A stretch of DNA of 41,257 nt, taken from positions 1 to 41,257 of the forward strand of contig CAZBOM010000001.1 in the NCBI GenBank assembly GCA_964493375.1, written 5' to 3'. The translations under genes and the position numbers were made by a program. Under the pieces are notes generated by a model, which was not told the DNA's origin, made no database searches, and worked only from the letters and a program-made list of their open reading frames with translations. This DNA comes from an uncultured Mageeibacillus sp. Lineage in GTDB: Bacteria; Bacillota; Clostridia; Saccharofermentanales; DTU023. Numbering within the stretch: position 1 is the first letter of the stretch; every line of letters starts with the position of its first letter. Below, in pieces: positions 3,802 through 21,326 of the stretch.

Positions 3802-5241
3802 TTAAAAAGTATTTTTATTCTCTTTTTCTGTGGCGACCGGATCGCCCGAAGTATTACCTGTTCGGAGTGTCAGCGTGTAGTCGTAGTTTTTATTCAGCTT
3901 AAAAATCTCACTTGTACCGCTCGATTTAAGGCGCTGATAGACACCCTCTTCTCCGAACATTTCGTTCTCGCCAAACCAATTCCCGAATCCAAAGGCTGAC
4001 TTAAAAATGTAACTTCCAGGCGGCAATTTAACTTTTACCGAATCACCCTTATTGATGAAGATCACTGAGACGAGCGTCGTGCCATCTTGATCGTAGATCT
4101 TGAAATACGTTGAACTGCCGTCATTTGCAGGCGGTTTAATGAGAAGCGAGCAACCGGACCCTTTATACGCGCTGTTGCGGAATAACTCACCGGTACTCGG
4201 TTTCGCCACGATGCAATTACCAGCCATATCCGCGGCATCTTTGAAGTTTCCAAGCGCTGTAAACTCTTTATAGGCATCGTACTTTTTACCGCTTTCAAAC
4301 ATGGTCTTCGCGGCTAAATAGAGCGGCATGTTCCGGCACTCATGGCGTAAATCCTCCACGTCGGGGAACTTCTCTTGGTCGAGATTGTTCAACGATTTAA
4401 GCGCCTCTTCGTAGTGACCATTCTCAATCAAAGAGATCGCTTTCTGGTAATCTTTATGATCGCGACAAAGCTTTACCATCTCACGCGCGTCTTTGTAATC
4501 TCCCGCCTTCACGAAAGATTCTTCAGCCTTCGCATAAAGACCTTTATCAAAATGCGCTTTCCCCTCGTTATAAGACATGATTGATTTCGCTTCGGCGGCT
4601 AGTTTATCAGAATCCTTAAACGAACTAATTTCTGCGAACAGACTGATCGCCTTTTGGTATTCCCCACTTTTCATCAGACGCTTGGCGTCGTCATATGTCA
4701 TGGTTTTCTTCGCGAAAGCCGCCATATTCTCGGAATCATCAAAAGCTCCGAGAGCCTCAAAGACTTCCTGAGCTCCTTTATAATCACCTTTTTCGAGCAA
4801 TGTCACGCCCTCGTTATACTTGTTCTGTTTCGCATTGTGTAAAAATACGGGAACAAGAATCGCCGCGGCGATGACAATGAGCGCCACACCGGCCATCACG
4901 AGATATTTTGTTTTGCGGCGTGGTTTTTTTGTCGCGTCATCGCGAGACGGTATCGGCTCGACGATTGGCGAAACAATCTCACCATAAGACATGGGCGCCA
5001 TAGGTTGATAAGCCACACCTTCATATTCAAATGCTTCTGTTTGTTGATGATTTCCTCCGTTATCTGAAAACAGCCTTGGCTCGACGGTAGGCGAAACAAC
5101 CTCATGGACTGTCATGGGCGCTACCGGCGGGGGCATCTCGACACCGTATTCAGGTGCATCAATTTCTTCACGTTTCTCACCGCAAAAAGGGCAAAACATG
5201 GTCCCTTCGAGCATCTCTTTTCCGCAATTGGCACAATACAT
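3802..5241 (-). CDS. Zinc-ribbon / single-TM / TPR-like repeat membrane protein
   Basis: The ORF track gives 3802..5364, but the likely start is Met42 (ATG at 5241), which is preceded by a GAGGG SD. The N-terminus MYCANCGKEMLEGTMFCPFCGEK is a CxxC...CxxC zinc ribbon. It is followed by a TM helix (YLVMAGVALIVIAAAILVPVFL), repeated G.Y..A...F..LG.FKDS helical repeats and a C-terminal beta-rich domain. Confidence 0.65.
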   Translation of the reverse strand: MYCANCGKEMLEGTMFCPFCGEKREEIDAPEYGVEMPPPVAPMTVHEVVSPTVEPRLFSDNGGNHQQTEAFEYEGVAYQPMAPMSYGEIVSPIVEPIPSRDDATKKPRRKTKYLVMAGVALIVIAAAILVPVFLHNAKQNKYNEGVTLLEKGDYKGAQEVFEALGAFDDSENMAAFAKKTMTYDDAKRLMKSGEYQKAISLFAEISSFKDSDKLAAEAKSIMSYNEGKAHFDKGLYAKAEESFVKAGDYKDAREMVKLCRDHKDYQKAISLIENGHYEEALKSLNNLDQEKFPDVEDLRHECRNMPLYLAAKTMFESGKKYDAYKEFTALGNFKDAADMAGNCIVAKPSTGELFRNSAYKGSGCSLLIKPPANDGSSTYFKIYDQDGTTLVSVIFINKGDSVKVKLPPGSYIFKSAFGFGNWFGENEMFGEEGVYQRLKSSGTSEIFKLNKNYDYTLTLRTGNTSGDPVATEKENKNTF

Positions 5242-5486
5242 GGGCGACCCTCGCTTTCTATCTGAAACACATCTATTTTCTGAACTCAAAAACTGGCTCC
5301 AGAAACTCTTCTGAAGCCAGTATAGTTTCAGGTTGAGACCGAGGTGTCTGCGCGATGCATACATCGCAGGCTTTTTTATCGATTGTTTATGTCAGTGAAA
5401 AACTTGAGTGAGAAGCGATGGTAAAACGAGCGCACGATCATCTGCTTGATTCAATGCTAGAGGGCTGTCATGAAATAAAACTGACG

Positions 5487-5569: not shown

Positions 5570-7138
5570 TTATGGCATAACTCGCTCATTATCGGAGCCA
5601 TCGATGCGAACACGCCAGAGGTGACCACCGTCCTCTTCGTTTTGATAGAAAATCCACCGCCCCACAATGTTAAACGGGCCTGTCTTCGTTGTGAGAATGG
5701 AATAGTGAACTCTCCCGTCCAGCGAAGTCCATTCAAGCGTCTTTCGATTGCCGGCGACATAAAAGATTCCCGCCGGCGTGACATTGATGTAATACGCCGG
5801 TTTGTTGGTGTATCTTTTGATATTGCCGCCATCTAAATCCATGCTGATCAGAAAACTCGCCGAATCATTGAGCACCTTTCGATCGGCATCTCGATTACTC
5901 GCGACATATGCGTAAATCCTGTTTTCGTAGATACAGAACCATTCACAACTATCACTGTTCAAGAGTTCCATGTTACTGCCATCCAGGTTACATCGGTACA
6001 AATTGTAGTCATTTTCCGGAGATGCGAAATACAGTTGTTTTCGCACAATATCGAGACAACCGTATGCCGTCATGCTATTGAGTTGTTTGACAGTCCCCGA
6101 TGGCGCGTGTACCTGGTAAAGATATCCGTGATCACGTGTCGTGTCGAGGAAGAATTCTCCGTCGATAATATAGAGCAATCCCGAGTGCGTATCGCAGAAT
6201 ATTTCGCTTTTCATCGATGTGGGGTCAATTCGATAAATTTTCTTATTCGATGCATAGTAAAGCCAACCGTCATAGTAGTTGAGAGCTTCCGCACCGGCGT
6301 TCTCAGCAAGCAGCTGAATCTCTCTCGAAAACGGATCCATGCGGTAGATGCTCCCGCGATCGATGAAAAAGATCTCGTGCTTGCTTCGTGCCGCGAAAGC
6401 ACCGCCTGCTGCCGTCAAATTGCCGGGGAGATTGCCCCTTTCCTGAGTGAAAGGCGTCTCAACCATACCGATTCCGCGCGCATCTTGAAATCCCACGTCA
6501 TAACCGGTCGCGTAACCTGATCTATATCCCGATTCTTTTTTTTCGATTTCTCCTTTATCCCTTCCTCTATAAAAGAAATGAATCGATAAACCGGTCGCGA
6601 TACTGAGAATGACGACTCCCAACAACCCGAATACGAGTTTCTTCGTATTTCTTCTCTTTCTCTTGATCAAAAGTGACAAGTCTCTTATATTTTGAACGCG
6701 TGCGCGCGGATCAAAAGCCGTACAGCACTCAATCACCTCGCGAAGCCTTTTATCCTCTACTTGCGTGTCTAGCTTCGTCTTATTCTCATACCCCGTCGCC
6801 ATGAAGAGCATCATCATGCCCAGTGAATACACAAGAGCGTCAGCTTTCTTCGTGTTCGCTCGGTCATACTCCGGAGGTGAATACAGCTCACTCTCATACA
6901 ATGGCACGCGTGTCCTTTTTAAAGAAATGGTTCCATCTTGTTTCATCATGACAAGCTGCGGATGTAAGATCGCGTCAAACGGTTCGCGAGCATCTTTGTT
7001 CGCATCTTCCACTATTTTGCAAATTTTTTGAACCGTGGAAAAAATGTCCTTTGGACGCATCACGCCTTCTTCGGTCACGATGTCAAAGATAGAACGCTCT
7101 TTTTTCCCATCCCATGAATAAGTCGATTTAGCGCTCAT
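5570..7138 (-). CDS. Truncated pseudokinase (C-lobe only) - TM - DUF5050-like beta-propeller protein
   Basis: The track ORF is 5570..7147 (GTG), but the ATG at 7138 has a strong AAGAGGTGA SD that overlaps the upstream gene's stop. Residues about 18-160 align with the C-lobe of the upstream kinase (LFMATG, C.AFDP..R), but HRDIKPQN is replaced by LHPQLVMM and DFG by SLK, and there is no N-lobe. A TM helix (LVFGLLGVVILSIATGL) follows, then repeats of the LYRCNLDGSNMELL / WRVRIDGSDNERV type. Confidence 0.75.
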   Translation of the reverse strand: MSAKSTYSWDGKKERSIFDIVTEEGVMRPKDIFSTVQKICKIVEDANKDAREPFDAILHPQLVMMKQDGTISLKRTRVPLYESELYSPPEYDRANTKKADALVYSLGMMMLFMATGYENKTKLDTQVEDKRLREVIECCTAFDPRARVQNIRDLSLLIKRKRRNTKKLVFGLLGVVILSIATGLSIHFFYRGRDKGEIEKKESGYRSGYATGYDVGFQDARGIGMVETPFTQERGNLPGNLTAAGGAFAARSKHEIFFIDRGSIYRMDPFSREIQLLAENAGAEALNYYDGWLYYASNKKIYRIDPTSMKSEIFCDTHSGLLYIIDGEFFLDTTRDHGYLYQVHAPSGTVKQLNSMTAYGCLDIVRKQLYFASPENDYNLYRCNLDGSNMELLNSDSCEWFCIYENRIYAYVASNRDADRKVLNDSASFLISMDLDGGNIKRYTNKPAYYINVTPAGIFYVAGNRKTLEWTSLDGRVHYSILTTKTGPFNIVGRWIFYQNEEDGGHLWRVRIDGSDNERVMP

Positions 7139-7143
7139 CACGA

Positions 7144-10100
7144 TCACCTCTTCTTTTGGAGTTGGTGGTCATTGGTGCCATCTAAACGAACACACCATAG
7201 ACGTCCGCCGTCATCATCATTGTGGTAAAAAATCCATTCGCCTGCGATATTAAAATCAATCGCACGACTTGACGTGATTTTGCTCCTATATTGACCGTCT
7301 AAAGAACACAGGTGAATCGTCTCCTCAAAGCGATCGATATAATAGATACCTCGACCCGTCACATTGATCATCGAAGCGCTCAATTCGGCGATAAAAGTCG
7401 TGTTACCTGTATTCGCGTCGACGCGAATCAACTCCTCATGGCCATTTTTTACCGTGGAGCAATAGATATCCCCTTCAAACAAGCAGACATTTTTGCACTC
7501 GCCATCGAGTAACCGCCTTACTTTGAAACTATTGATATCCATACTGTAGAGAGCGCTGTCTTTTCCGTATACAAATACGATTTTATCCTTGTCAACATTA
7601 ACCCATCGACAAGGGAAAAGGTCACTCCGCTTTTTAATACTGCCGTCGGCAATATCGAGAGAATAAAATCCATCCTCTCCGGCGATATAGTATTTCGAGT
7701 TCACAAGATGAAGTTTGCCCACCATGTCTTCGCGCAGAATATCGCGATCTAATGTATAGATGTTTGTTTGCATAATCTTTGAGCCGGAAGAATAGTAAAG
7801 CCACCCATTCATGTAGCTCAGCGCTTGCGCGTTTTGGCCGCGCACGATCACATCTCCCTCCGTCCCCTTTTCAGACATTTTGATGATGTCACCGTCGAGA
7901 ACATAAAAAACTGAATCGGCACCTTGCGCCGCAAAAGCGCCACCTTCAATCGCCATGTTACCGGGTCGATTGCCGCGCGTAGCATCTTCGTCCATATCGC
8001 CGATTTTGACAATGGGAGCATCTTCATACCCATCGACATATCCGATGTCAAAGCCGCTCTTATAACCTACTTGCACTCCTTTGTCTTTTCCCAGCTTGTT
8101 TCCAATACCGTAGGATAACAACGAAGGTAGCACCATCATGGTGACAAGACAGGCGGCGATCGCGATTCTTCGACTCGTTCTTCGGTGAGATTTCTCTCTC
8201 GTAATGAAATGGTCAATCACCTCGACGCTCTGGATGCGAGACTTCGGGTCAAAGGCGATGCATCGCTCAATCAAATTGCGCAATCGGTTATTCACGACTT
8301 TCGCCTCTAAATCTGATCGCGAAACATGCCCGGTTGCCATGAAAAGTATGACGACACCTAATGAATAGATATCGGTCAACGGTGACGTTTGCTCAAAACC
8401 GAATTGCTCCGGAGGCGCGTAGTCTAGCGTGAGCACGACCGATGTATCTTGCGTGCTCTCCTCTTTATGGACACGCGATATCCCGAAATCAATCAAGTGA
8501 ATACTTCCGTCATATCCCACAATGATATTCTGCGGTTTGATGTCGCGATGAATGACGGGAGGCGTTTGCGCGTGGAGATAACGGAGAATTTCCGTTATTT
8601 TAAGTACGACTCCAAAAATATCTTTTACACTTAGCACGCCTTTGGCTCTGACAATATCGTAGAGCGATCGCCCTGCGATGTATTCGCGGACAATATATTT
8701 CTTGCCGTCTTTTTCATAAGTTTCGAACACTTTTGGAATGCCGGGGTGGTCAAATGAACTTAAGATTTTCGCTTCTTCCAGAGCGTCTTCTTCGGGGTAA
8801 TCTTTTGTGACGCGGAGAATAGCCTTGATACCATCTTGCTTTCGTCTCAAAAGATAGATTTCTTTTTTGCCATTTTCGTCTTTTCGAATACAACTTTCAA
8901 AAGCGTAACGGTGAATCAACGCCTCCGGCATCCCTTCACAAGAGATCGTTTCATTAAGCGTTGCGTTATAAGCATTCAAGAAACTGTTGACATCACTGCC
9001 GAAATACTCGGGGTTTGATGAAGGGATAATTTTTGGCGATGACACTTGCATAGGCTCTCTCCCTTTCGCTCGACTCGGAGCCAAGCTTATTATGCGTTGC
9101 GAACTATTGATTGGCGCTAACTGAACTATTGTCCTCGGACGGATGCCACTGAACAGCTGAGGCGTCAGCAACACAGGGGCAAGAACTGTTCCAAACAGAA
9201 TGTAACAGTAGATGATGATGGTGACGGGGGCAATTCCTTTCCTTGTGATTAAGAAGAGACCTCGGTCTATACAAAGAACGGCGATCAATAGGAAACCTTT
9301 GTTTTTGCGCACAAATTCCGCAATCAATCGTAAGCCTTCCGTAAATCGCCCGTCGAGCTCATCGACACTCGTCGAAGGGAACGATTTCATGTTGAGTTTT
9401 ATTTTGTTGGCTAAATAACGACATGCTCCCGCGAGCATGGAGAACGCGTGACCGACAAAGGAGATGGCGACAATAACGGTGTGTGGAAATTTTTCTATCT
9501 TATCCTCAGGGAATCGGCTGCGCATCACAAATCCGCGTATACAAGGAAGAATCACAAAAAAGACATTACAGGTAATAAACCCCGCCCACAAGAGATGTAT
9601 ATTCCCAAAATAGCATTCGAGCAATACAGTCGGGATGAGCATGATCTCATTGATGATCGAGAAAAAATACAAGAACATATAAAACGCGTCGCATTTTCGT
9701 GTTCTCCCGAGAACAATCGTGCCGTCAAAAATCATCTCAAACAACCCATACGAATATCGATGTTGTTTCCCCGTTTCCTCGGCAAATGTTCGGCTCACAT
9801 ATTCGGTAAACTCGAGACCGTTTAGCTGAGCGTATTTCCCGTGATACCCCATATTGTAAAAACCGATCGCTTTATCAAAATCCTCGGAGACTTTGTTTTC
9901 GGACCAAAGCCCGCTTTTTTCCAAAATACTCTTTCTGATAAAAGCGTTATGTCCCACCAGAGGGACAAAGAACCCTTGGAGCGCTTTACATGGCCAAATA
10001 TTGTGAAAGAGATTGTTCGTCTGGTGTCCTGTCGCATAAGAAAAATAATTGTCCGACATATTAATCGCGACGGTCGCGCATTGTATATAGGCGAGTTTGT

Positions 10101-10974
10101 CATCGGATGCGAATTCGGGGACGACCGCCTCAATTATCTTCTCTTTGACGCCGGAATCTTTGTCCAGCAAAAGAATTATTTCTCGAGTCTCAATATCGCC
10201 TTCGGCATACCCTCCTTCGAACGTGCCGCCCGCGCGCGTCAAATCACCGAGAGCATTCCCCTGGACTGTCGCATTGCCAAGTCGAATCGTGTAATTAAGA
10301 TTGGAAGCTTTCTTGAAAAGACCTGCACGCCCTTGAGCCGGTCTCACAACAAAAGCGACACCTGATCGCCTGTAAAATGCGATGCGCTCAGCCGCTTTCA
10401 TTTCTTTCTCAGAAAGTTGATTTGAATTACTCGAGAATCGATGCATCAGATCATCCGCGATATCACGTGAGCAGATACCACCCAATAACGGTGCGAGACC
10501 ATCATCGGACACGATGATGTTGGCCGATAGACCGCTGTATTGTTGATAGCGTTTCGCGGCCGCGATACTACCGCGAATCGTCTCAAAGATGACGGCATTC
10601 TCTTCAGTGTATACGGGGATACTGATGGTGACAGGAAAATACGAGGAACGCTCAACCTCACTTCTCGCGACATTCATATAATGCTTTCTATTAATTCGCG
10701 TAACCCCTGAGAGAATATCGCAGACGGAAGGTCGCAAAGACCAGAGAACATCAGCCAAATAATAAAACGGATAAATAAAAAAAATAAAAGATACTAGCAA
10801 TCGAAATAAGCTCTGGATCGACATGCCATACAGAAAAAACAATCCTACATGGATGAAGGCATTAAGTGCGAGCGAAGCAACATATGGCCATACGCCGCAA
10901 ATACCGTTCCCGAGTGTCTCCGGTATTCTCTTCGCCCGTCTCGTTCGGTTTTTCTTCACCCTGATCATCGCCAT
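7144..10974 (-). CDS. Multidomain membrane protein: cellulose-synthase-like family-2 glycosyltransferase + Hanks-type Ser/Thr protein kinase + extracytoplasmic DUF5050-like beta-propeller
   Basis: 1276-aa ORF. GT2 motifs are DDG (157-159), KKASNLN (221-227), DKD (271-273), SED (363-365) and QHRYS (404-408), followed by a multi-TM bundle (about 425-605). The kinase carries HRDIKPQN (809-816), DFG (829-831) and APPE (853-856). A TM helix spans about 936-955, and propeller-type repeats run to residue 1270. Confidence 0.8.
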   Translation of the reverse strand: MAMIRVKKNRTRRAKRIPETLGNGICGVWPYVASLALNAFIHVGLFFLYGMSIQSLFRLLVSFIFFIYPFYYLADVLWSLRPSVCDILSGVTRINRKHYMNVARSEVERSSYFPVTISIPVYTEENAVIFETIRGSIAAAKRYQQYSGLSANIIVSDDGLAPLLGGICSRDIADDLMHRFSSNSNQLSEKEMKAAERIAFYRRSGVAFVVRPAQGRAGLFKKASNLNYTIRLGNATVQGNALGDLTRAGGTFEGGYAEGDIETREIILLLDKDSGVKEKIIEAVVPEFASDDKLAYIQCATVAINMSDNYFSYATGHQTNNLFHNIWPCKALQGFFVPLVGHNAFIRKSILEKSGLWSENKVSEDFDKAIGFYNMGYHGKYAQLNGLEFTEYVSRTFAEETGKQHRYSYGLFEMIFDGTIVLGRTRKCDAFYMFLYFFSIINEIMLIPTVLLECYFGNIHLLWAGFITCNVFFVILPCIRGFVMRSRFPEDKIEKFPHTVIVAISFVGHAFSMLAGACRYLANKIKLNMKSFPSTSVDELDGRFTEGLRLIAEFVRKNKGFLLIAVLCIDRGLFLITRKGIAPVTIIIYCYILFGTVLAPVLLTPQLFSGIRPRTIVQLAPINSSQRIISLAPSRAKGREPMQVSSPKIIPSSNPEYFGSDVNSFLNAYNATLNETISCEGMPEALIHRYAFESCIRKDENGKKEIYLLRRKQDGIKAILRVTKDYPEEDALEEAKILSSFDHPGIPKVFETYEKDGKKYIVREYIAGRSLYDIVRAKGVLSVKDIFGVVLKITEILRYLHAQTPPVIHRDIKPQNIIVGYDGSIHLIDFGISRVHKEESTQDTSVVLTLDYAPPEQFGFEQTSPLTDIYSLGVVILFMATGHVSRSDLEAKVVNNRLRNLIERCIAFDPKSRIQSVEVIDHFITREKSHRRTSRRIAIAACLVTMMVLPSLLSYGIGNKLGKDKGVQVGYKSGFDIGYVDGYEDAPIVKIGDMDEDATRGNRPGNMAIEGGAFAAQGADSVFYVLDGDIIKMSEKGTEGDVIVRGQNAQALSYMNGWLYYSSGSKIMQTNIYTLDRDILREDMVGKLHLVNSKYYIAGEDGFYSLDIADGSIKKRSDLFPCRWVNVDKDKIVFVYGKDSALYSMDINSFKVRRLLDGECKNVCLFEGDIYCSTVKNGHEELIRVDANTGNTTFIAELSASMINVTGRGIYYIDRFEETIHLCSLDGQYRSKITSSRAIDFNIAGEWIFYHNDDDGGRLWCVRLDGTNDHQLQKKR

Positions 10975-10981
10975 CTATCCA

Positions 10982-12256
10982 TTATTTTCCAAATGGATTT
11001 GCCTTCATTTGCGCGAGCGCATACCAACTCGTCGCACTGATACTCTGTTGATTGTGATACTCCCAAAGGACTTTTGAACCACTCACATAAAAGCCTGTTG
11101 AGACACCGTCTCTATCGGCGGCGGGGATGCTCCCATCACGCGCTTCCTGAGTTTTCAAATAGAGGATTTTCGAATCGTATTTTTCCGATTCGCCAAGCTC
11201 ACTGTAACAAAGAGCCATTTGGGCTGTTCCTTCATTCCATATGCCATCTAAGTCTCCGGCACTAAAATCAAATCCGGCCCCTATAGACATCCTGTCTTCG
11301 ACAAACGAAATAATTTTATGCGCGTTGAAAAGTTCCTCGCGAAGCGCCAGAATAGCCAGCGAATTGGAGTCTAAGGGAATAACGCCTTTACTGATTGTCT
11401 TTCCATCTTTCTCAGTGCCGGTATAAAAGCAATGAAATTTGTCATCATACATGGAGAGGACGAAAGACTTCGCGTGGTCGGATGCCTCGAAATAGACGGC
11501 CGCTTTTGTCGGATCACTTTCTTTAATCGCGCCGGCCATCACGTTGAATGCTCGGATCAGGTCAATGTTGTGCTCTGTTGATTTGTAATCAACTTTTATC
11601 TGGTCGTTATCCCATCCTTCATAGCCGGCCGTAAAACCTCCCGTTGACGATTTTAATGTCAAAACAAAATCGGCCGCTCGGACGGCTGCATCAAGATACT
11701 CCGTTTTCTTGTCTACCGATGCATTTTCGGCAGCCTTACAAAGAGCCAATATGGACCACGCCATATTACCTGTCGACGTCGAAACGGTGTAATAATCCTC
11801 CTGCCAACGACCTGATTGCCAAAAACCGGGAAGCCTTATCGTCACTTTCCCACCTGTGATGGAGCGTCCCGAATCGCTTCGTGGATCACCGCTCGTGTAG
11901 GCATTCCGAAATCGCCCGTCTTTGAACAACCGGTCGTGATCTTGGGCAAACACGAGCACATCGGCCAATTTTTGTACGTGCCATACGGCTCCCGCTTCTG
12001 ATAACGCGATCAAGGCCATAGCATTGTCATATATATATGCATGGTCCGAAGGACCGCCCTTACTTTCATCAACGCTCGCAATAAAACCGCCGCTCTCTTC
12101 CACACAACCGGCGAGAAATCCGGCGGCAGAAGATACATTTCTTATGTCATTTGCCGCCGGTTTAATCTCTTCACTACCACGGCATCCCGTGATTGTTAAT
12201 AAAAAAATAAAGATCAAGGATAGCGCGATCCTTCTCTGTCTCGCTGTATTTTTCAT
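10982..12256 (-). CDS. Secreted lipoprotein with predicted (alpha/alpha)6-toroid fold (glycoside-hydrolase-like or terpenoid-cyclase-like)
   Basis: The track ORF starts at a TTG (12268), whereas the ATG at 12256 follows a GGAGG SD. The signal peptide plus lipobox reads MKNTARQRRIALSLIFIFLLTITGC. Hairpin-helix signatures recur: YDNAMALIAL, GNMAWSILAL, EHNIDLIRAF, DSNSLAILAL, NEGTAQMALCY, SATSWYALAQ. Only 7 nt separate it from the synthase-kinase gene. Confidence 0.6.
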   Translation of the reverse strand: MKNTARQRRIALSLIFIFLLTITGCRGSEEIKPAANDIRNVSSAAGFLAGCVEESGGFIASVDESKGGPSDHAYIYDNAMALIALSEAGAVWHVQKLADVLVFAQDHDRLFKDGRFRNAYTSGDPRSDSGRSITGGKVTIRLPGFWQSGRWQEDYYTVSTSTGNMAWSILALCKAAENASVDKKTEYLDAAVRAADFVLTLKSSTGGFTAGYEGWDNDQIKVDYKSTEHNIDLIRAFNVMAGAIKESDPTKAAVYFEASDHAKSFVLSMYDDKFHCFYTGTEKDGKTISKGVIPLDSNSLAILALREELFNAHKIISFVEDRMSIGAGFDFSAGDLDGIWNEGTAQMALCYSELGESEKYDSKILYLKTQEARDGSIPAADRDGVSTGFYVSGSKVLWEYHNQQSISATSWYALAQMKANPFGK

Positions 12257-12299
12257 ACAGACCTCCAAGTGCTCAGCAGAAATGACTCGTCGTCTTTAA

Positions 12300-12363: not shown

Positions 12364-12822
12364 TCAGTCGTTCTCCGTCCCGTCGTCCAAGGGCGCTAAT
12401 TGCAACGTTCGCATAAACTCATAAGTATCAATGATGTCATAGCCGTGGTTAATCGCGAAAATGATCGCGGCATCTCGTTTGATGAGAGGATGTAAAGCCC
12501 CGGAATGTGTGACGGCCAACATGCGTTGCGTTGTCTTCAAATCGAGAGACATGGCGATCGCAATTAAAAGATAATAATCTCTTTTCCCCAGCCTTCGCCC
12601 CTCCATAATCTGATAACCATACGTGCGCGACAAATTAGCTTTGCGAATGACTTCGCTTTTCTTTTGTCCTGTCTGCGTGAGCAGGTCATCAAAAAAAGCC
12701 CGGATATCATCATCCAGAAAAGCGTCCCAATGTTGTGGGAAAGAGTCGCCTTTCAGTTGTTCTTGCATGAGTTTTGTGTCTAAAGGATTTTTCGGACGAC
12801 TTTGATCGTTCATCTGACTCAT
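12364..12822 (-). CDS. Small helix-turn-helix (XRE-like) protein
   Basis: 152-aa ORF. The central segment KKSEVIRKANLSRTYGYQIMEGRRLGKRDYYLLIAIAMSL looks like an HTH followed by helices. The family assignment is from memory only. Confidence 0.5.
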   Translation of the reverse strand: MSQMNDQSRPKNPLDTKLMQEQLKGDSFPQHWDAFLDDDIRAFFDDLLTQTGQKKSEVIRKANLSRTYGYQIMEGRRLGKRDYYLLIAIAMSLDLKTTQRMLAVTHSGALHPLIKRDAAIIFAINHGYDIIDTYEFMRTLQLAPLDDGTEND

Positions 12823-12920: not shown

Positions 12921-15900
12921 TCAATTGACCCATGAAGCAACGCTGCCCTCGGAATCAATTCGCACTTGTAGTTGTTGGTTGATCGCTTGTTTCAGCATGG
13001 GGACGTGAGAGATCACGCCAATCAAACGGTTGTCAACGGAGAGGTCTTGCAAGACATGGATGGCGTCTTGAAGCGATTCCTCGTCGAGACCACCAAAGCC
13101 TTCATCGATAAAAAGCGCGTCGATCTCCACACCACCCGCATGTTCAGACACGACATCAGAGAGACCAAGCGCCATCGAAAGCGCCGCTTGGAATTTCTCA
13201 CCGCCGGATAGCGTCGAGACGGGGCGCGTCTTCGCTGTCCAGAGATCTTCTACGGAAAGATCAAGCCCCGTTCTTGATCGTCCATCTTTACCTTTCTCAG
13301 ATCGAATGAGCTCATAGCGGCCGTTTGTCATTCTCGCGAACCGTTGGTTGGCACGATTGATCACCTGTGTAAAATACCACGTCTGAATAAAGACCTCGAA
13401 ACTAATTTTATCGGCCTCTTTGTGGTTACCTGTCGCGAGATCGGCTATATCTGACAGCATTTTTTCTTCTTCTAGAGCTTCCAATGTTTTCTTATGCATC
13501 GATTTGATACTCTCGAGAATATCTTGATATTTAGCAACGCGTCCCGATTGCTCAAGATGAGCTTCTTTCAATGCAGATAGTTGCTTTTGCAACGCATCAA
13601 CGACCGCCACTTCCTCGGCTTCATCTCGCTTTGACAGTCCTTTTATCTCACGGCTCAGGCGATCGAGATCGCGGACGTTCGCATCTCGCTTGCTTTTCTC
13701 CTCGTCGACCTTCTGTTCCAAATCAATGCGCTCATCATCTTTGAGGCGCTTCTCTCGATAATCATTCTCCGAGACAAACAAACCTTTCTCCAGCGCTTCG
13801 TAAAACTCATTTTCTTTCGCGAGATAATGCTTCTTTGCCGAATCACAGGCTAATTGAATGCTCTTTAGCGTCGCTTCGGCGGCTGTTAACGTTTCACGGG
13901 CTTGTCTCTCATTTTCTGTCGCCTGCTTGTATTCTCGCTCAAGGAGATCCTGACGTTCTTTTTTCTGGTCGAGAGATGTTTTAACTGTTCCGAGCGATGC
14001 ACCCGACACGCGTTTTGTTAAAGCTGAAATCTCTCCTTCCAGCTTCGTCGCCCTCAATTTCCCTTCTTGGATCTCTCGGCTCTTTAACGCGATTTTCTCT
14101 GTGAGATTTCGCATAGCTTCGCTTGTCTCTGTTATGTCGCGCTTAAGTTCTTCTCGGCGATCAGATTGAGCCTGTAAAGCCTTTTGCTTTTGATCGGCAT
14201 CCGATTGTTCTGATGTCAAGAATTCGTTCAACTGCTGCAAGCTGTCTTGCAACTCAACTATTTTTTGGGTCATGAATTCGAGCGCGCCACCGGTTAATTC
14301 CGAGTCATGTGTCGCTTCAATTTCTTCTTGTCGATTGAGACAAGGAAGTTTATCGGTCAGAGCGTCAGCTTGAAATGAGACGCGATCAAGCGTTGATCGT
14401 GTCTTCGAGATATCTCTTTCGAGAGCCGAACTGGCCTCATCCGCGATTTGGCGTTTCGCTTGCGCTTCCTTTTCGAGACGCTCGACTGCCGCTTCATCAA
14501 GGGAATCTTCCGACAAGGTCGCTTTATGCGGGTGCTCTTTCGAGCCGCACACAGGACACGGTTCCCCCTCGACTAACTGAAGAGCCAAATAGCCGGCTCG
14601 TTCTCGAAACAGAAGATCGGAAGCTTCGTGCGCTTCTTCAGCCGTTTCTCGCCACGCCTGTCGCTTCTCTTCGCACTGCTCGCGTTGTTTTAAAAGCCCT
14701 TCTACATCTTTTTTGAGGTTGTCGGCGTCTTGGCGCAGTGAAGATACTTTCAAGTGATCAGCCCGCACATCATCGGCATGCGCTTTTGCCATCGTCAAGT
14801 CATGAGCGACGTCTGCCAAAGAATCGAGTTCATCCTGCTTTTCCTGCAGCGCATCGCTGAGCTCAGAACGCGTGGTGAGAAATTGCTCATGCGAATTCTC
14901 AGCTTCTTCAACAACCTTGTTCTGAGTCTCAGCCGCTTGTTGCAGAGGAGCTAAACTTTCCAAGATCTTGAGTTCATCCTCAAGTTTGCTTATCTCTAGA
15001 GGAAGCTCTCCCCGTTCGCGATCGTATTCTTTCGCTTTAGCCAATTGAGAGGCAGCCTTGTCCAAATCGACAGCGGCATCATGCCTGTTTTCTTCCGCTT
15101 GCTGAAGGTTTTCTTTCGTTTCTTTTAAGGTGCTTCTCGCTCCTTCTAAAGCATTCCAGGATGGATCGACGAGGCGTGTCGCGCGGTCGTCATCTTCGAG
15201 ACGTTTTTTCATCTGTTCAAACGCTCGCTCCGTTGCTTTCAACTGATCGCGTTCTTCGACCGCTTTGTCAAACTCGAGAAGTTTCTCATTGTCTTTACGC
15301 AACTGTTCGAGTGATATTTGAGCTCTCCCCAGGCGACGGTCGGCCGCTTCTTCCTCTCGACGAACAATATTGAGAGAGCTCACCATCTCGGCATCAATAC
15401 GATCGAGATCAGTGATACACTCGGCGACACTCCAGAACGAGCGCAACGAGACAATCTCTGCAAATCTCAGTCTAGCTTCTGTCTCTTCTTCGGGAAGCAC
15501 AATACTCCCAAGCTGGTGAAACAGCATACCTTCAAGCATCGAGCGGTTCGACTTCGCGTTCTTATATTTCTCGGAGATTAGAAGCTGCATTTTCTCATAG
15601 AGACTTGTATTAAAAAGCTTCCTAAAGATCGCCGATCGATCGTTGCTGGACGTTCCGATAAGCTCATAAAACTCGCCTTGCGCAATCATCGCGACTTGCC
15701 GAAACTGCGTCTTATCAAGCCCCAACAACTCCGGGATGGTATCGTCAACCGTTTTGATTTTTGTCAACACGCGACCGTCAGGAAAGGTGAGCTCAACTTC
15801 CGCCGCGCACTCTGTCAATCCTTTGCCACGCATTTTGGGTCGCTCATATGCCGGACTTCGTCTGATCGTGTAAGTTTCACCTCGGAGAACAAATTCAAAC

Positions 15901-16136
15901 TCGACAAAGGTCTCCACATCAACGGCCGCAAAATCGCTTCGAAGTTTACTGCTCCCACGCGTCATGCCGCTCGTATCGTTATAAAGGGAATACATAATCG
16001 CGTCAAAGATCATCGTTTTGCCGGATCCCGTATCTCCCGTAATCAGAAACAATCCTTCATGCAGCTCGTCGAAAGATATGGTCGTCTTTTTCGCATATGA
16101 ACCAAAAGCGCTCATGGTCAGTCTAATCGGCTTCAT
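12921..16136 (-). CDS. sbcC: Exonuclease SbcC (SMC-like ATPase)
   Basis: 1071 aa. It has Walker A GDTGSGKT, a long coiled coil, a zinc hook CPVCGS, the signature LSGGEKF and Walker B LFIDEGFGGLD. An ATGA overlap joins it to sbcD. Confidence 0.9.
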   Translation of the reverse strand: MKPIRLTMSAFGSYAKKTTISFDELHEGLFLITGDTGSGKTMIFDAIMYSLYNDTSGMTRGSSKLRSDFAAVDVETFVEFEFVLRGETYTIRRSPAYERPKMRGKGLTECAAEVELTFPDGRVLTKIKTVDDTIPELLGLDKTQFRQVAMIAQGEFYELIGTSSNDRSAIFRKLFNTSLYEKMQLLISEKYKNAKSNRSMLEGMLFHQLGSIVLPEEETEARLRFAEIVSLRSFWSVAECITDLDRIDAEMVSSLNIVRREEEAADRRLGRAQISLEQLRKDNEKLLEFDKAVEERDQLKATERAFEQMKKRLEDDDRATRLVDPSWNALEGARSTLKETKENLQQAEENRHDAAVDLDKAASQLAKAKEYDRERGELPLEISKLEDELKILESLAPLQQAAETQNKVVEEAENSHEQFLTTRSELSDALQEKQDELDSLADVAHDLTMAKAHADDVRADHLKVSSLRQDADNLKKDVEGLLKQREQCEEKRQAWRETAEEAHEASDLLFRERAGYLALQLVEGEPCPVCGSKEHPHKATLSEDSLDEAAVERLEKEAQAKRQIADEASSALERDISKTRSTLDRVSFQADALTDKLPCLNRQEEIEATHDSELTGGALEFMTQKIVELQDSLQQLNEFLTSEQSDADQKQKALQAQSDRREELKRDITETSEAMRNLTEKIALKSREIQEGKLRATKLEGEISALTKRVSGASLGTVKTSLDQKKERQDLLEREYKQATENERQARETLTAAEATLKSIQLACDSAKKHYLAKENEFYEALEKGLFVSENDYREKRLKDDERIDLEQKVDEEKSKRDANVRDLDRLSREIKGLSKRDEAEEVAVVDALQKQLSALKEAHLEQSGRVAKYQDILESIKSMHKKTLEALEEEKMLSDIADLATGNHKEADKISFEVFIQTWYFTQVINRANQRFARMTNGRYELIRSEKGKDGRSRTGLDLSVEDLWTAKTRPVSTLSGGEKFQAALSMALGLSDVVSEHAGGVEIDALFIDEGFGGLDEESLQDAIHVLQDLSVDNRLIGVISHVPMLKQAINQQLQVRIDSEGSVASWVN

Positions 16137-17314
16137 GAGATGCCTCCTGCGGCTTCTTCTTCCGCCCTTTGCGCTACTATGCGCACGACGGATAGTTGTT
16201 CATCTGACATTTTGCGCCCCAATTGACGCTCGAAAAAATCTGTGAATAAATCGACCGCGCTTTTCTTTGTCAAATCCGCCTTCGATAAAAGTACCCCCTT
16301 AGCCATCTCCTCCGAGCGCTCTCGGTCAAAAAGGAGACGCATAATATAGGGGTAGTATTCTCTTAAACGGTTCATCGGATCGGTGACGGGACCTTGGTCT
16401 GTCAGAGTCACTTCGAGATAGTCCAATCGAGACTTATCTTCGTCTCGCTTCATCACTTCACCTTGCTCTAAAAGTTCTGATAATGTTCCTCGAATACGGC
16501 GCATATCGCGCAATCGCGCCAATGGTTTTTGTCTGATGGTGACAATTTTGTCAGGCGATAAGTCAACGACGAGCGCACCCTTTACATGATTGGCCTCCGA
16601 AAAGGAATACGGTAGCGGCGAGCCTGAGTAATAGACGTGATCGGTACCAACTTGTTGTCTCCCGTGAAGATGCCCGAGCGCAACGTAATCAAATCCCGAA
16701 AAAACGTCGACATTAATTTCGTCCGCTGTGCCGACTTGCAACATCTCCGAATCGGAGCGAAGAAGGTTTGAGCCTTTCGCGATGACGAATTGATGGGCGA
16801 TTATCACATTCATCCCTTCTTTGCGTATCACCGTTGAAAGCGCGGCCTCGACAGCTTCTTCCACCGTCTTGATCTCACGGTCTGGGAAAAAGCGTCGCAC
16901 CATTCCGGCTCGAATAAAGGGCATAAGGTGGAAATTTGTCTTATATCCATCCTCGTCGCAGACCACTTCGACGCACGGAACAGATCCGTCAAAAACGCCT
17001 GCGATATGAATGTTATGTTTCTCAAGAAAAGATCGTCCAAACGACAAACGCTCACCTGAATCGTGGTTGCCGGCGACGATGAGAATCGGTATCGAGAGAT
17101 TTGACAATTGAATGAGAAAGTTCTCGAACAAATCGATCGCTTCAACCGAGGGGATCGCTTTGTCGTAAATATCGCCCGCTATGACGATCGCATTTGGCTT
17201 TTCAAGTCGGCACAATTCGACGATAGAATCGAGCATAACTTGCTGATCGTCCACCATTGAGAATTCGTGCACTCGCTTCCCAAGATGCAGATCAGAGACG
17301 TGAATAAATCGCAC
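16133..17314 (-). CDS. sbcD: Exonuclease SbcD (Mre11-type metallophosphoesterase)
   Basis: 393 aa, with MRFIHVSDLHLGK, AGDIYD, GNHD and GHLHG motifs. The GTG start is preceded by a GGAGAA SD that lies in the tail of the patatin gene. Confidence 0.9.
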   Translation of the reverse strand: MRFIHVSDLHLGKRVHEFSMVDDQQVMLDSIVELCRLEKPNAIVIAGDIYDKAIPSVEAIDLFENFLIQLSNLSIPILIVAGNHDSGERLSFGRSFLEKHNIHIAGVFDGSVPCVEVVCDEDGYKTNFHLMPFIRAGMVRRFFPDREIKTVEEAVEAALSTVIRKEGMNVIIAHQFVIAKGSNLLRSDSEMLQVGTADEINVDVFSGFDYVALGHLHGRQQVGTDHVYYSGSPLPYSFSEANHVKGALVVDLSPDKIVTIRQKPLARLRDMRRIRGTLSELLEQGEVMKRDEDKSRLDYLEVTLTDQGPVTDPMNRLREYYPYIMRLLFDRERSEEMAKGVLLSKADLTKKSAVDLFTDFFERQLGRKMSDEQLSVVRIVAQRAEEEAAGGIS

Positions 17315-19181: not shown

Positions 19182-19221
19182 AATGATGTAAAACACAAAA
19201 TTGATCATTGGACGACAACAT

Positions 19222-21312
19222 ATGAAACGAACTAATTATTGCGGACTTTTTTCAGAGCAGGACGTCGGGAAACAGACGACAGCCTGCGGTTGGGTTGAGA
19301 CGAAACGCGATATGGGCGGCGTGATCTTCATTGATCTCGTCGACCGCGAAGGCGTACTTCAGATCGTCTTCAATCCGGCGTATACAGATCCTGAAGCATT
19401 TGCTCTCGCCGAGCGCGTCAGAAATCAATCAACACTTTTGGTTGAAGGGACGATGTTCCTCCGCGATGAGGAGACGGTCAACCCGAAGATCGCGACGGGA
19501 ACGGTTGAATTGCGTGTGACGCGAGCCGATCTACTTTCCACTTGTGGCGATCTCCCCTTTAACCCCGCCGAAGCGGACGATGTGAGAGAGGACTTGCGCC
19601 TGCGTTATCGTTATCTCGATTTGAGACGCAAGCGTCTGCGCGATAATATCCGCTTTCGTCATCGCGTCACATCGGCCATTCGTCGATTCATGGATGGCGA
19701 AGGGTTTGTCGATATCGAGACACCGATTCTGACGAAGAGCACCCCGGAAGGCGCGCGCGACTATCTCGTTCCGAGCCGTGTCCACCCCGGTTCTTTCTAC
19801 GCTCTGCCGCAGTCTCCGCAAATATTCAAACAACTTCTGATGGTGTCGGGATTCGATCGCTATTACCAGATCGCGCGTTGCTTCCGCGACGAAGATCTTC
19901 GAGCCGACCGACAACCTGAATTCACACAGCTCGACTTGGAAATGTCTTTCATCGAGATGGAAGATATTCTCTCAACACTCGAGAACTTATTCCGATCTGT
20001 TATGGCGGAAGTAAAAGGCATCGAATTTGATGAACCTTTCCCGCGCTTCACTTGGGCTGAGGCGATGGATCTCTACGGCAGTGACAAACCTGATCTGCGC
20101 TTTGACCTGCCTATCGTCGATATCACCGATATTGCGGCGACATCGGGATTCTCTGTGTTTACTAAAGTAGTCGAAGCCGGCGGTGTCGTTCGCGCCATCA
20201 ACGTGCCGGGACAATCCGACTTCACACGCGCCACCATTAATGAACTGACGGATTTCGCGATTTCCGAAGGTGCCGGCGGCATGGCGTGGATCGCTTGGCG
20301 TCCATCGGGTGAAATCTACTCCATTTTGACAAAATTCGTCGATGAGAAAAACATGCTTGCACTGCTTGAGCGCGTCGGTGCCAAGCCGGGCGATTTCGTT
20401 TTATTCTCAGCCGATAAACTCGATGTCGTCCGCCGCGTCTCCGGTGCGCTTCGACTCCGACTCGGTGAGATGCTGGGACTTCGCGATCCGAACAAATTCG
20501 CCTTCGCAATCGTCACTGAATTCCCCATGTTCGAATTCAATGAAGAAGAAGGACGATATACGGCGCAACACCACCCATTCACCATGCCGTTCGAGGAAGA
20601 TCTCGATTATCTCGTTTCCGATCCGCCGCGCGTTCGATCACAAGCTTATGATTTCGTTTTGAACGGAACAGAGCTCGGATCAGGTAGCATTCGTATACAC
20701 CGCGGCGACATCCAACGACGCGTTTTCCAAGCGTTGGGACTCGGCGAGAAAGATATTGAGGAACGCTTTGGCTTCATGATCAACGCGTTTGCTTATGGCG
20801 CGCCACCGCACGGCGGGTTTGCGTTCGGACTTGACAGACTCGTCATGATTCTCGCGGGCGAGCAATCACTCCGCGATGTCATCGCATTCCCGAAAATACG
20901 CGATGCCTCTTGCCCGATGACGGAAGCGCCGACACCTGTCGCCGATGACCAGCTTGAAGCGCTCGGCATCCGCCTCGTCGATTCCGTGCGATCGGAGATG
21001 GGACGTCCCGTCAGCCGGGAAGAAAAACGGCGGACGGAACTCGATATCAAACGATTAACCGGTGATTCCCGCCTCATTTTATCCGCGGAAGAAGAAGACG
21101 GTATGCGCGACAGCTTGCTCGAACTGATTTCTTTTGCCGATGCGCTCCACGAGATTGATACAGAGGGAGTTGACCCTACCTTCACTTCTTCTGAAGCACA
21201 TGATGTCTGGCTCACACCGCGCGATGATCGCGCGTTATCGGCAGAGGACGCGCTCGCCAACGCGCCGGACTCTCGAGAGCCGTTCTTTTTCGTGCCGCCC
21301 GTCGTTGAGTGA
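19222..21312 (+). CDS. aspS: Aspartate--tRNA ligase (bacterial type with GAD insertion) fused in frame to a C-terminal GatC domain
   Basis: The track ORF starts at a TTG (19201), but the canonical AspRS N-terminus MKRTNYCG begins at the ATG at 19222. Class II motifs are present (FRDEDLRADRQPEFTQLD, GSGSIRIH, GLDRLVM). The protein is about 110 aa longer than a typical bacterial AspRS, and the tail aligns with GatC (see next feature). Confidence 0.9.
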   Translation: MKRTNYCGLFSEQDVGKQTTACGWVETKRDMGGVIFIDLVDREGVLQIVFNPAYTDPEAFALAERVRNQSTLLVEGTMFLRDEETVNPKIATGTVELRVTRADLLSTCGDLPFNPAEADDVREDLRLRYRYLDLRRKRLRDNIRFRHRVTSAIRRFMDGEGFVDIETPILTKSTPEGARDYLVPSRVHPGSFYALPQSPQIFKQLLMVSGFDRYYQIARCFRDEDLRADRQPEFTQLDLEMSFIEMEDILSTLENLFRSVMAEVKGIEFDEPFPRFTWAEAMDLYGSDKPDLRFDLPIVDITDIAATSGFSVFTKVVEAGGVVRAINVPGQSDFTRATINELTDFAISEGAGGMAWIAWRPSGEIYSILTKFVDEKNMLALLERVGAKPGDFVLFSADKLDVVRRVSGALRLRLGEMLGLRDPNKFAFAIVTEFPMFEFNEEEGRYTAQHHPFTMPFEEDLDYLVSDPPRVRSQAYDFVLNGTELGSGSIRIHRGDIQRRVFQALGLGEKDIEERFGFMINAFAYGAPPHGGFAFGLDRLVMILAGEQSLRDVIAFPKIRDASCPMTEAPTPVADDQLEALGIRLVDSVRSEMGRPVSREEKRRTELDIKRLTGDSRLILSAEEEDGMRDSLLELISFADALHEIDTEGVDPTFTSSEAHDVWLTPRDDRALSAEDALANAPDSREPFFFVPPVVE
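21037..21309 (+). other. gatC: GatC-homologous domain forming the C-terminus of the AspRS polypeptide
   Basis: ELDIKRLTGDSRLILSAEEEDGMRDSLLELISFADALHEIDTEGVDPTF...SAEDALANAPDSREPFFFVPPVVE aligns along its full length with B. subtilis GatC (recalled sequence ...[41 protein letters not shown]...[20 protein letters not shown]). There is no stop codon between the AspRS core and this domain. Confidence 0.8.
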
Positions 21313-21326
21313 GAAGGGAAACTGAG

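Follow-up and report, generated by a model that had tools for sequence, protein, structure and literature searches.

Can the output of a membrane glycan synthase be set by a receptor kinase built into the same polypeptide? This question is raised by a gene on the minus strand (7144..10974) of a 41,257-nt stretch of DNA from an uncultured Mageeibacillus sp. (contig CAZBOM010000001.1, positions 1 to 41,257), which we refer to as the window. Cellulose, poly-N-acetylglucosamine (PNAG), alginate and Pel are the products of textbook synthase-dependent systems controlled by cyclic di-GMP (c-di-GMP), and in the cellulose synthase BcsA the segment after the transmembrane (TM) bundle is PilZ, which binds c-di-GMP. 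In the product of the gene the original prediction, made from the sequence alone, saw a cellulose-synthase-like family 2 glycosyltransferase (GT2), a Hanks-type Ser/Thr kinase in the position of PilZ and an extracytoplasmic β-propeller. This fusion proved to be real and recurrent, and the arrangements in which its synthase module occurs identify the synthase C-terminus as an exchangeable regulatory slot; a phosphorylation switch operated from outside the cell is a tentative reading of it.

Architecture and distribution of the fusion protein

The open reading frame (ORF) comprises 1276 open codons with zero internal stops, and Pfam recognizes all three parts of its product, i.e. Glyco_trans_2_3 (PF13632; residues 266-475, E 4e-23, above the gathering score), Pkinase (residues 718-922, E 1e-36, 126.7 bits at a gathering score of 31.7) and DUF5050 (PF16472; residues 1100-1274, E 4e-22, 79.1 bits at a gathering score of 27). 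Synthase, kinase and propeller thus indeed reside in one polypeptide, and they are conserved across its relatives. All motifs quoted in the original prediction lie at their residues, both in the synthase (DDG 157-159, KKASNLN 221-227, DKD 271-273, SED 363-365) and in the kinase (HRDIKPQN 809-816, DFG 829-831, APPE 853-856), and the kinase is followed, as proposed, by a single TM helix and the DUF5050 propeller. An AlphaFold2 model of residues 1-1010 was obtained with a predicted local distance difference test score (pLDDT) of 86.5 and a predicted TM-score (pTM) of 0.74. The features of the gene are as follows:

7144..10974, minus strand: fusion gene for GT2 synthase, Hanks-type kinase, TM helix and DUF5050 propeller, 1276 aa (ORF, Pfam)
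10738..10890, minus strand: N-terminal TM hairpin, aa 29-79, after a Lys/Arg-rich, predicted cytoplasmic tail (AlphaFold2 helices 29-48 and 53-79)
9727..10677, minus strand: GT-A catalytic domain and interface helix, predicted cytoplasmic, aa 100-416, with DDG, FKKASNLN, DKD, SED and KQHRY (Pfam, conservation, BcsA profile alignment, Foldseek)
9151..9696, minus strand: bundle of TM and interface helices, aa 427-608 (AlphaFold2 secondary structure, hydrophobic moments, K+R counts)
9361..9384, minus strand: candidate gating loop F532-P-S534-T535-x-V537-D, aa 531-538 (column counts)
8995..9150, minus strand: variable disordered linker, aa 609-660, the fission point of split forms (pLDDT below 50; gap-rich, poorly conserved columns)
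8200..8994, minus strand: Hanks-type kinase, predicted cytoplasmic, with a conserved N-terminal helix, aa 661-925 (Pfam, conservation, relatives in the PDB)
8110..8166, minus strand: single TM helix between kinase and ectodomain, aa 937-955 (hydropathy; long AlphaFold2 helix 917-976)
7147..7977, minus strand: putative extracytoplasmic sensor, a DUF5050 (LRP1/YWTD-like) β-propeller, aa ~1000-1276 (Pfam PF16472; kept in all fused relatives)

The TM bundle, expected at about residues 425-605, was placed at 427-602 by hydropathy and AlphaFold2 helices. It contains TM helices 427-456 and 463-484, an interface-like helix (496-525), a loop (526-543), a strongly amphipathic helix (544-557) and a TM hairpin (560-577/583-602), with pLDDT mostly above 90 over residues 427-608; a further interface helix (397-416) bears KQHRY. 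Helix 496-525, which we read like interface helix IF3 of BcsA, has a lower hydrophobicity and a higher amphipathicity than the TM helices. Lys and Arg residues number 8 in residues 1-28, 0 in loop 49-52 and in the other short outer loop, 4 after TM4 and 6 before TM helix 937-955. These counts obey the positive-inside rule and agree with the topology proposed originally, in which GT2 and kinase would be cytoplasmic and the propeller, probably of a six-bladed type and preceded by the TM helix, would lie outside.

A 100% identical copy was found on an independently assembled Logan contig, and the full architecture is common to ~85 clusters (90% identity level) that are 47-61% identical to the window protein. 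Scanning one genome per species over 185,579 GTDB species yielded 82 relatives, ~40-45 of which are fused in a single frame. The second assembly and the many lineages with one frame confirm that the ORF is unsplit. Most carriers are Clostridia sampled from the rumen, gut, termites, the mouth and digesters. Three are isolates, namely Peptostreptococcaceae oral taxon 113 W5053, Clostridiales COT073 and Coriobacteriales OH1046, and a small number of records bear the label Actinomycetota or Fusobacterium. Five fused orthologs come from records labelled Actinomycetes, Atopobiaceae, Coriobacteriales and Fusobacterium (L015, L016, L019, L047, L049), with 54-57% identity over the full length and 58-60% over the best tblastn segment. 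Such orthologs beyond Clostridia are explained by horizontal transfer between phyla or by faulty binning or labelling of metagenome-assembled genomes (MAGs), the former being favoured because OH1046 is an isolate.

A full-text literature search returned no description of this architecture or of kinases carrying DUF5050, and none of the 4 papers mentioning DUF5050 concerns this protein. The claim that a fusion of a GT2 synthase with a eukaryote-like Ser/Thr kinase is undescribed therefore stands as far as publications go, but not as a claim of rarity: the architecture is already in public databases, where its entries are labelled 'protein kinase' or 'DUF5050 domain-containing protein', and it is hardly rare in its niche. 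Moreover, each component class is already known, as are synthases with fused regulatory domains.

The synthase half, its C-terminal slot and the kinase half

The GT2 module is seen in five arrangements, one of them being the kinase fusion of the window. It also occurs unfused together with the lipoprotein described below (e.g. L037), and in Butyrivibrio (P0097-P0103, 41-44% identity) it is fused to GGDEF-EAL, domains of c-di-GMP turnover that take the same C-terminal position as the kinase. In Ohessyouella blattaphilus PAL227 (L042 5986..10552) the gene for an unfused GT2 of 629 aa (54% identical) overlaps that for a membrane histidine kinase by 4 nt, with an OmpR-type response regulator following. 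Finally, GT2 and Pkinase-TM-DUF5050 are encoded by adjacent genes in a Bifidobacteriaceae MAG (L073 5545..9688; 732 + 629 aa) and in a Lachnospiraceae MAG (L055 3248..7110; 658 + 629 aa), both pairs breaking within the linker region 609-660.

In the fusion the kinase follows immediately on the final helix hairpin of the synthase, at the place of PilZ in BcsA. The original prediction had assigned it this regulatory position, and the GGDEF-EAL domains found there in Butyrivibrio are independent evidence for a regulatory slot. This pattern of exchange provides the most compelling evidence for joint action of the two halves and for the synthase C-terminus, an exchangeable slot, being a regulatory input. 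The pTM of the model, being higher than the ~0.6 expected from the 600-residue synthase body alone, hints at a defined packing of kinase against synthase.

In one Butyrivibrio locus (L005 6121..13414, strain LB2008) the GT2-GGDEF-EAL gene is flanked by genes for a 627-aa sulfatase-family protein (LtaS/BcsG-like) and for a 698-aa protein with a domain related to the cassette lipoprotein and a faint GDPD match. These flanking genes hint at a phospho-substituted polymer.

The synthase half carries the motif set of a GT-A glycosyltransferase, with D157/D158, D271-x-D273 for DxD and S363-E364-D365 for TED. In an alignment of the window protein with 112 relatives (n = 113; 83 fused and 29 unfused relatives) residues D158, G159, K221, K222, N225, D271, K272, D273, E364, D365, R406 and Y407 are invariant. 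A PDB search with the single sequence of residues 1-680 gave zero matches and one with a whole-protein profile gave matches dominated by kinases; a profile of the unfused GT2 relatives matched BcsA as the sole family (7lby, 4hg6; E ~4e-4). In the BcsA profile alignment VSED pairs with VTED and K403-Q404-H405-R406-Y407 with Q-R-I-R-W, making KQxRY (403-407) the equivalent of QxxRW. The residues QHRYS (404-408) previously assigned to this position are present, but in a register that is off by one. QxxRW itself is altered, Gln being replaced by Lys and Trp by Tyr while Arg and an aromatic residue are retained; R406 and Y407 are invariant across the GT2 clade, and K403/Q404 nearly so.

The best Foldseek matches of the model were E. 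coli BcsA structures (9b8v_E, E 1.3e-15, 789 columns; 9fmz_A, E 5e-13, 580 columns), the next synthase being soybean CesA6 (8vi0_B). These alignments of 580-790 columns include the TM region, i.e. both the GT domain and the TM channel have a fold of the BcsA type. Like BcsA and CesA, the protein has a GT-A domain between TM segments, the D, DxD, (T/S)ED and R-aromatic motifs, an FKKASNLN segment that resembles HAKAGNLN and HKKAGAMN, an interface helix with a QxxRW-type motif and a conserved loop at the gating-loop position, and it shares with BcsA a cytoplasmic C-terminal regulatory domain after the last TM hairpin. Unlike BcsA, to which it is only 12-14% identical, it has KQxRY instead of QxxRW and comes without PilZ and BcsB: PilZ gave no match in Pfam or NCBIfam for the fusion protein, and BcsB none among the neighbouring ORFs scanned. 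Together with a score of 17.1 bits for NCBIfam CelA (TIGR03030), as compared to a cut-off of 699.1, this speaks against the assignment of the GT2 to the BcsA type proper. A HMMER scan of 1.84 billion representatives gave a GT2 clade of 243 proteins at E<=1e-30, and an NCBIfam scan of distant GT2 relatives returned no named family, only weak similarity to CelA and MdoH. The GT2 thus has a BcsA-like fold and BcsA-like motifs, but is a member of a small unnamed clade distinct from BcsA proper. Judged by its modelled fold, the synthase half most likely builds a sugar polymer from a nucleotide-sugar donor and threads the chain through a membrane channel of its own.

Loop 531-538 is located after the interface helix and before the last TM hairpin, a position that makes it the putative equivalent of the BcsA gating loop. 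It has the consensus F-P-S/A-T/S-x-V-D, with F532 in 110 of the 112 relatives and V537 invariant, and shares the register of F and T with FxVTxK of BcsA. The S534 column holds Ser or Thr in 92% of the fused forms and Ala in 22 of the 29 unfused ones, S534 being one of 3 among 611 positions at which Ser/Thr reaches >=90% in fused and <=30% in unfused forms.

The C-lobe of the kinase is canonical. Its HRD, DFG and APPE motifs had been noted in the original prediction, and the key residues H809, R810, D811, K813, N816, D829, F830, G831 and E856 are invariant in the 83 fused relatives, as is E734 of helix αC, so that the catalytic loop (HRDxKxxN), DFG, an APE motif (PPE 854-856) and the αC Glu of a Hanks kinase are all in place. 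The activation loop contains T844 and T849. According to PDB profile searches and Foldseek the nearest solved kinases are StkP, Stk1, PknB and WNK1, and the Foldseek matches of the kinase half include S. aureus PknB/Stk1 and M. tuberculosis PknB (entries 4eqm and 9ymt). Like the receptor kinases PknD, PknB, Stk1 and StkP, the protein combines a cytoplasmic Hanks kinase with a single TM helix and an extracellular sensor, and PknD also uses a β-propeller for this purpose. Unlike in these kinases, DUF5050 takes the place of NHL or PASTA as sensor, a polytopic enzyme is fused to the kinase, and the N-lobe, devoid of the glycine-rich loop, has Arg in place of the β3 Lys. The kinase scores 129.5 bits against the Stk1/PknB PASTA equivalog NF033483, far below the cut-off of 450, and the fusion contains no PASTA repeats, its ectodomain being DUF5050.

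The register of the N-lobe was taken from a search of an N-lobe profile against the PDB, in which HMMER aligns Y707 with Y19 of CDK2 as deduced from the coordinate ranges (the printed alignments start at αC). The three Gly positions of GxGxxG then correspond to D699, N701 and K704. The β3 (VAIK) Lys position, tentatively placed at 721 by the canonical Y+14 spacing, is R721 in the window protein, with Arg in 71 and Lys in 12 of the 83 fused relatives. K717, which had been proposed as catalytic Lys and for a kinase-dead allele, is ill suited to either purpose as its column is unconserved (37 Lys, 21 Arg and 15 Pro among the 83). K704, by contrast with K717, is invariant in all 83. Arg at the β3 Lys position is known from KSR, and WNK kinases have their catalytic Lys at the third Gly of the loop, the position of K704 in the inferred register; WNK1 and WNK3 also rank high in sequence and fold searches with the kinase half. 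Neither likeness implies orthology, and the distant split kinase of the Bifidobacteriaceae MAG, which keeps Arg at β3, has His at the K704 position. The latter weakens the idea of a WNK-like displaced catalytic Lys, which we considered in view of the invariance and place of K704 and do not claim. As GxGxxG is absent and most fused relatives have Arg at β3, kinase activity is not to be assumed.

The conserved cassette and the proposed control of the synthase

The surroundings of the fusion gene were surveyed by tblastn across 85 loci. Nearly all complete fused loci have the same order of a 152-aa protein, a lipoprotein, the fusion and a truncated paralog, and the junctions in the window comprise one 7-nt gap and one 4-nt overlap. 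Apart from the fusion gene, the cassette of the window consists of:

12364..12822, minus strand: first cassette gene, 152-aa protein (homolog search)
10982..12268, minus strand: upstream lipoprotein with an (α/α)6-barrel, glycoside-hydrolase-like fold (lipobox, AlphaFold2, Foldseek)
5570..7147, minus strand: downstream paralog with a truncated dead kinase (C-lobe only), a TM helix and a DUF5050 propeller (likely start ATG 7138)
5292..5321, minus strand: terminator-like hairpin, 13-bp stem followed by a T-run (consensus scan)

The 152-aa protein has no Pfam match, and neither a signal peptide nor a TM segment was noted. Its 312 homologs are all annotated as 'hypothetical', with 68-84% identity among the 120 listed, and no other cassette member is as well conserved, the synthase-kinase itself included. 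It is present in nearly every fused locus, and its gene also adjoins unfused Bifidobacteriaceae GT2 genes, from which it is divergently transcribed.

The lipoprotein has an invariant lipobox Cys (C29). Searches of Pfam and NCBIfam gave no match and a sequence search of the PDB only spurious ones to nitric-oxide synthase. Its AlphaFold2 model (pLDDT 86, pTM 0.87) matched dextran dextrinase, MmpH, GH76, GH94 and the α-amylase CPF_2247 in Foldseek (E 4e-9 to 1e-6). It shows the six-hairpin barrel, with query TM-scores (TMq) of 0.50-0.63 to dextran dextrinase, MmpH and GH76, GH94 and CPF_2247 being lower in the list. The gene adjoins the GT2 module with or without a fused kinase, and we regard the lipoprotein as a probable polymer-processing or polymer-binding partner.

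The paralog (522-525 aa across loci) is 30% identical to residues 752-1272 of the fusion (E 7e-78). It has a DUF5050 domain (E 1e-30) and no Pkinase match in Pfam, lacking the N-lobe, HRD and DFG. Its gene lies directly 3' of the fusion in nearly every complete fused locus, with an AGAGG resembling a ribosome-binding site within the end of the fusion gene, and its product is a probable partner of the receptor half. The hairpin at 5292..5321 likely ends the predicted cassette transcript; a promoter scan gave 14 matches as compared to 14.5 in shuffled sequence, i.e. no excess. Several MAGs of digester Clostridia (L009, L011, L012, L014, L023) encode, ~3.4 kb downstream of the cassette, a second kinase paralog with 38-40% identity to fusion residues 660-990.

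These data suggest that a signal from outside the cell controls polymer output via phosphorylation instead of c-di-GMP. In such a system the propellers would recognise an external ligand, for which the polymer itself, a wall glycan or a host glycan may be considered, and its binding would alter how the kinase pairs with the dead-kinase paralog, the probable hetero-oligomer partner of the receptor half. The kinase might then autophosphorylate its activation loop at T844 and T849 and phosphorylate the synthase in cis, with S534 in the F-P-S-T-x-V-D loop as best candidate, which would open or close the catalytic site. The lipoprotein could play a BcsZ-like role by trimming or binding the polymer, and the small, highly conserved 152-aa protein may be a further partner. 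Topology, kinase activity, phospho-gating and its target, the polymer and the ligand are all inferred. We consider the chances that the gene encodes a genuine single-chain 'sensor-synthase' to be evenly balanced. The complete outside-in circuit in one polypeptide, in which the propeller senses a ligand and the kinase phosphorylates S534, replacing the c-di-GMP/PilZ switch, with the paralog as obligate co-receptor, is a possibility that we put forward tentatively; if true, it would be the first processive glycan synthase gated by a Hanks kinase.

Regulatory domains attached to synthase-dependent polymer systems are also found in BcsA-PilZ, Alg44, PgaCD and the Butyrivibrio GT2-GGDEF-EAL proteins; in contrast to GGDEF-EAL fusions and c-di-GMP-gated synthases, the input here is a transmembrane receptor kinase instead of a second messenger or its turnover. 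Protein phosphorylation controls polysaccharide output in the case of the BY-kinase Wzc and of plant CesA. However, BY-kinases such as Wzc are Walker-type tyrosine kinases of Wzx/Wzy pathways, and the CesA kinases are separate proteins; neither case involves a covalent fusion of synthase and receptor kinase. A receptor kinase in this slot would mean that very different inputs can be taken up by the synthase scaffold, which is supported by the sister lineages with GGDEF-EAL or an adjoining two-component pair.

Several observations weigh against the sensor-synthase reading. KQxRY deviates from QxxRW and the clade is without a characterised member, so that processivity and export are assumed from the fold, and the Foldseek TM-scores to BcsA and CesA6 are low (0.29-0.42, with 0.32-0.42 for BcsA), in part owing to the multi-domain query and for the rest to true divergence. 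An N-lobe without GxGxxG and with Arg at the β3 Lys could make the domain weakly active or purely allosteric. The S534 signal stems from a single, probably monophyletic clade and could be due to phylogenetic hitch-hiking. Finally, the window scan found no genes for a PP2C phosphatase, FHA proteins or nucleotide-sugar enzymes.

Information might also flow in the opposite direction. The synthase half would then be a sensor or anchor and the kinase would report the state of the synthase or the presence of polymer to other targets, e.g. the 152-aa protein or cell-envelope enzymes, without any gating, which we think unlikely. It would account for the 152-aa protein being the best conserved and a nearly constant member of the cassette, the target of cis-phosphorylation is itself only a candidate, and in related loci the GT2 is accompanied by a histidine kinase and a DNA-binding response regulator, suggestive of a transcriptional output. 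However, the 152-aa protein also accompanies unfused GT2 genes devoid of a kinase (L006, L072), which makes it a partner of the synthase and not of the kinase, and the fusion of GGDEF-EAL to the same site is in keeping with a local control of the enzyme.

An equally unlikely reading takes the domain as a pseudokinase or very weak enzyme that controls the synthase allosterically by nucleotide binding or dimerisation with the paralog, similar to KSR and without phosphotransfer. Arg for the β3 Lys normally cripples kinases, and the prevalence of this Arg, the lack of Gly at all three positions of the glycine-rich loop, the clearly dead partner paralog and the His replacing K704 in the distant split form are all consistent with this. 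Yet the HRD Asp, the Lys and Asn of the catalytic loop, DFG and the APE-like motif are invariant in the 83 fused relatives and kept in the Bifidobacteriaceae form. Exactly these phosphotransfer residues are lost in the dead paralog, which argues for a predicted activity of the fusion without proving it. Likewise, the restriction of position 721 to Arg or Lys and the invariance of E734 suggest that a working ATP site has been maintained. Purifying selection acts on the catalytic centres of GT and kinase alike, conservation being well beyond chance.

It is rather improbable that the GT2 half is no synthase-exporter at all, but a kinase-controlled membrane enzyme that glycosylates a lipid or wall polymer such as a glycolipid or a polymer of the teichoic-acid type. 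The degenerate KQxRY, the weak similarity to both CelA and MdoH in a clade that has no named relative, and the Butyrivibrio locus with its LtaS-like sulfatase-family and GDPD-like genes point in this direction. On the other hand, processive BcsA and CesA are the best structural matches over 580-790 columns including the TM region, the loop F-P-S/A-T-x-V-D is conserved at the gating-loop position, the partner lipoprotein has a glycoside-hydrolase fold, and a sulfatase-family enzyme, BcsG, is also part of the phosphoethanolamine-cellulose system. An assembly or frameshift artefact joining two genes, for which one could invoke the split forms in two MAGs, has a negligible chance and was effectively ruled out by the identical ORF in an independent assembly and by the single frame in ~85 clusters and ~40-45 species genomes with three isolates.

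The compact and self-contained cassette would be a practical model for a possible phospho-gating of a processive glycosyltransferase, and the cultured carriers (oral taxon 113 W5053, COT073, OH1046) make the idea directly testable. It also defines three unannotated families, i.e. the GT2 clade, the (α/α)6 lipoprotein and the 152-aa protein, that travel together in anaerobes of gut, rumen, mouth and digesters, the matrix and capsule biology of which is largely uncharted.

Neighbouring genes in the window

Downstream of the cassette lies a loose neighbour:

3802..5364, minus strand: membrane protein with Zn-ribbon, TM and TPR parts (Pfam Zn_Ribbon_1, TPR)

As the terminator-like hairpin is located inside its longest ORF, the true start should be the downstream ATG at ~5241, from which gene callers also start the protein (479 aa). 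Relatives with Zn-ribbon and TPR are encoded a short way downstream of the cassette in L010, L017, L028, L038 and L051 and next to the split Bifidobacteriaceae form (L073 9803..11362), and the protein could be another partner, albeit a looser one.

Directly upstream of the cassette are the genes for SbcC (1071 aa) and SbcD (393 aa; together 12921..17314, minus strand). The rest of the window is of housekeeping character and encodes a patatin, an RDD protein, ABC transporters, peptidases and an enzyme of the xanthine-dehydrogenase type. One of the remaining genes (19201..21312, plus strand) codes for a 703-aa aspartyl-tRNA synthetase (tRNA-synt_2 and GAD) that carries a GatC domain at its C-terminus (aa 627-698), with GatA (21309..22799) and GatB (22796..24253) following immediately. 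This fusion of aspartyl-tRNA synthetase and GatC suggests a covalently linked transamidosome.

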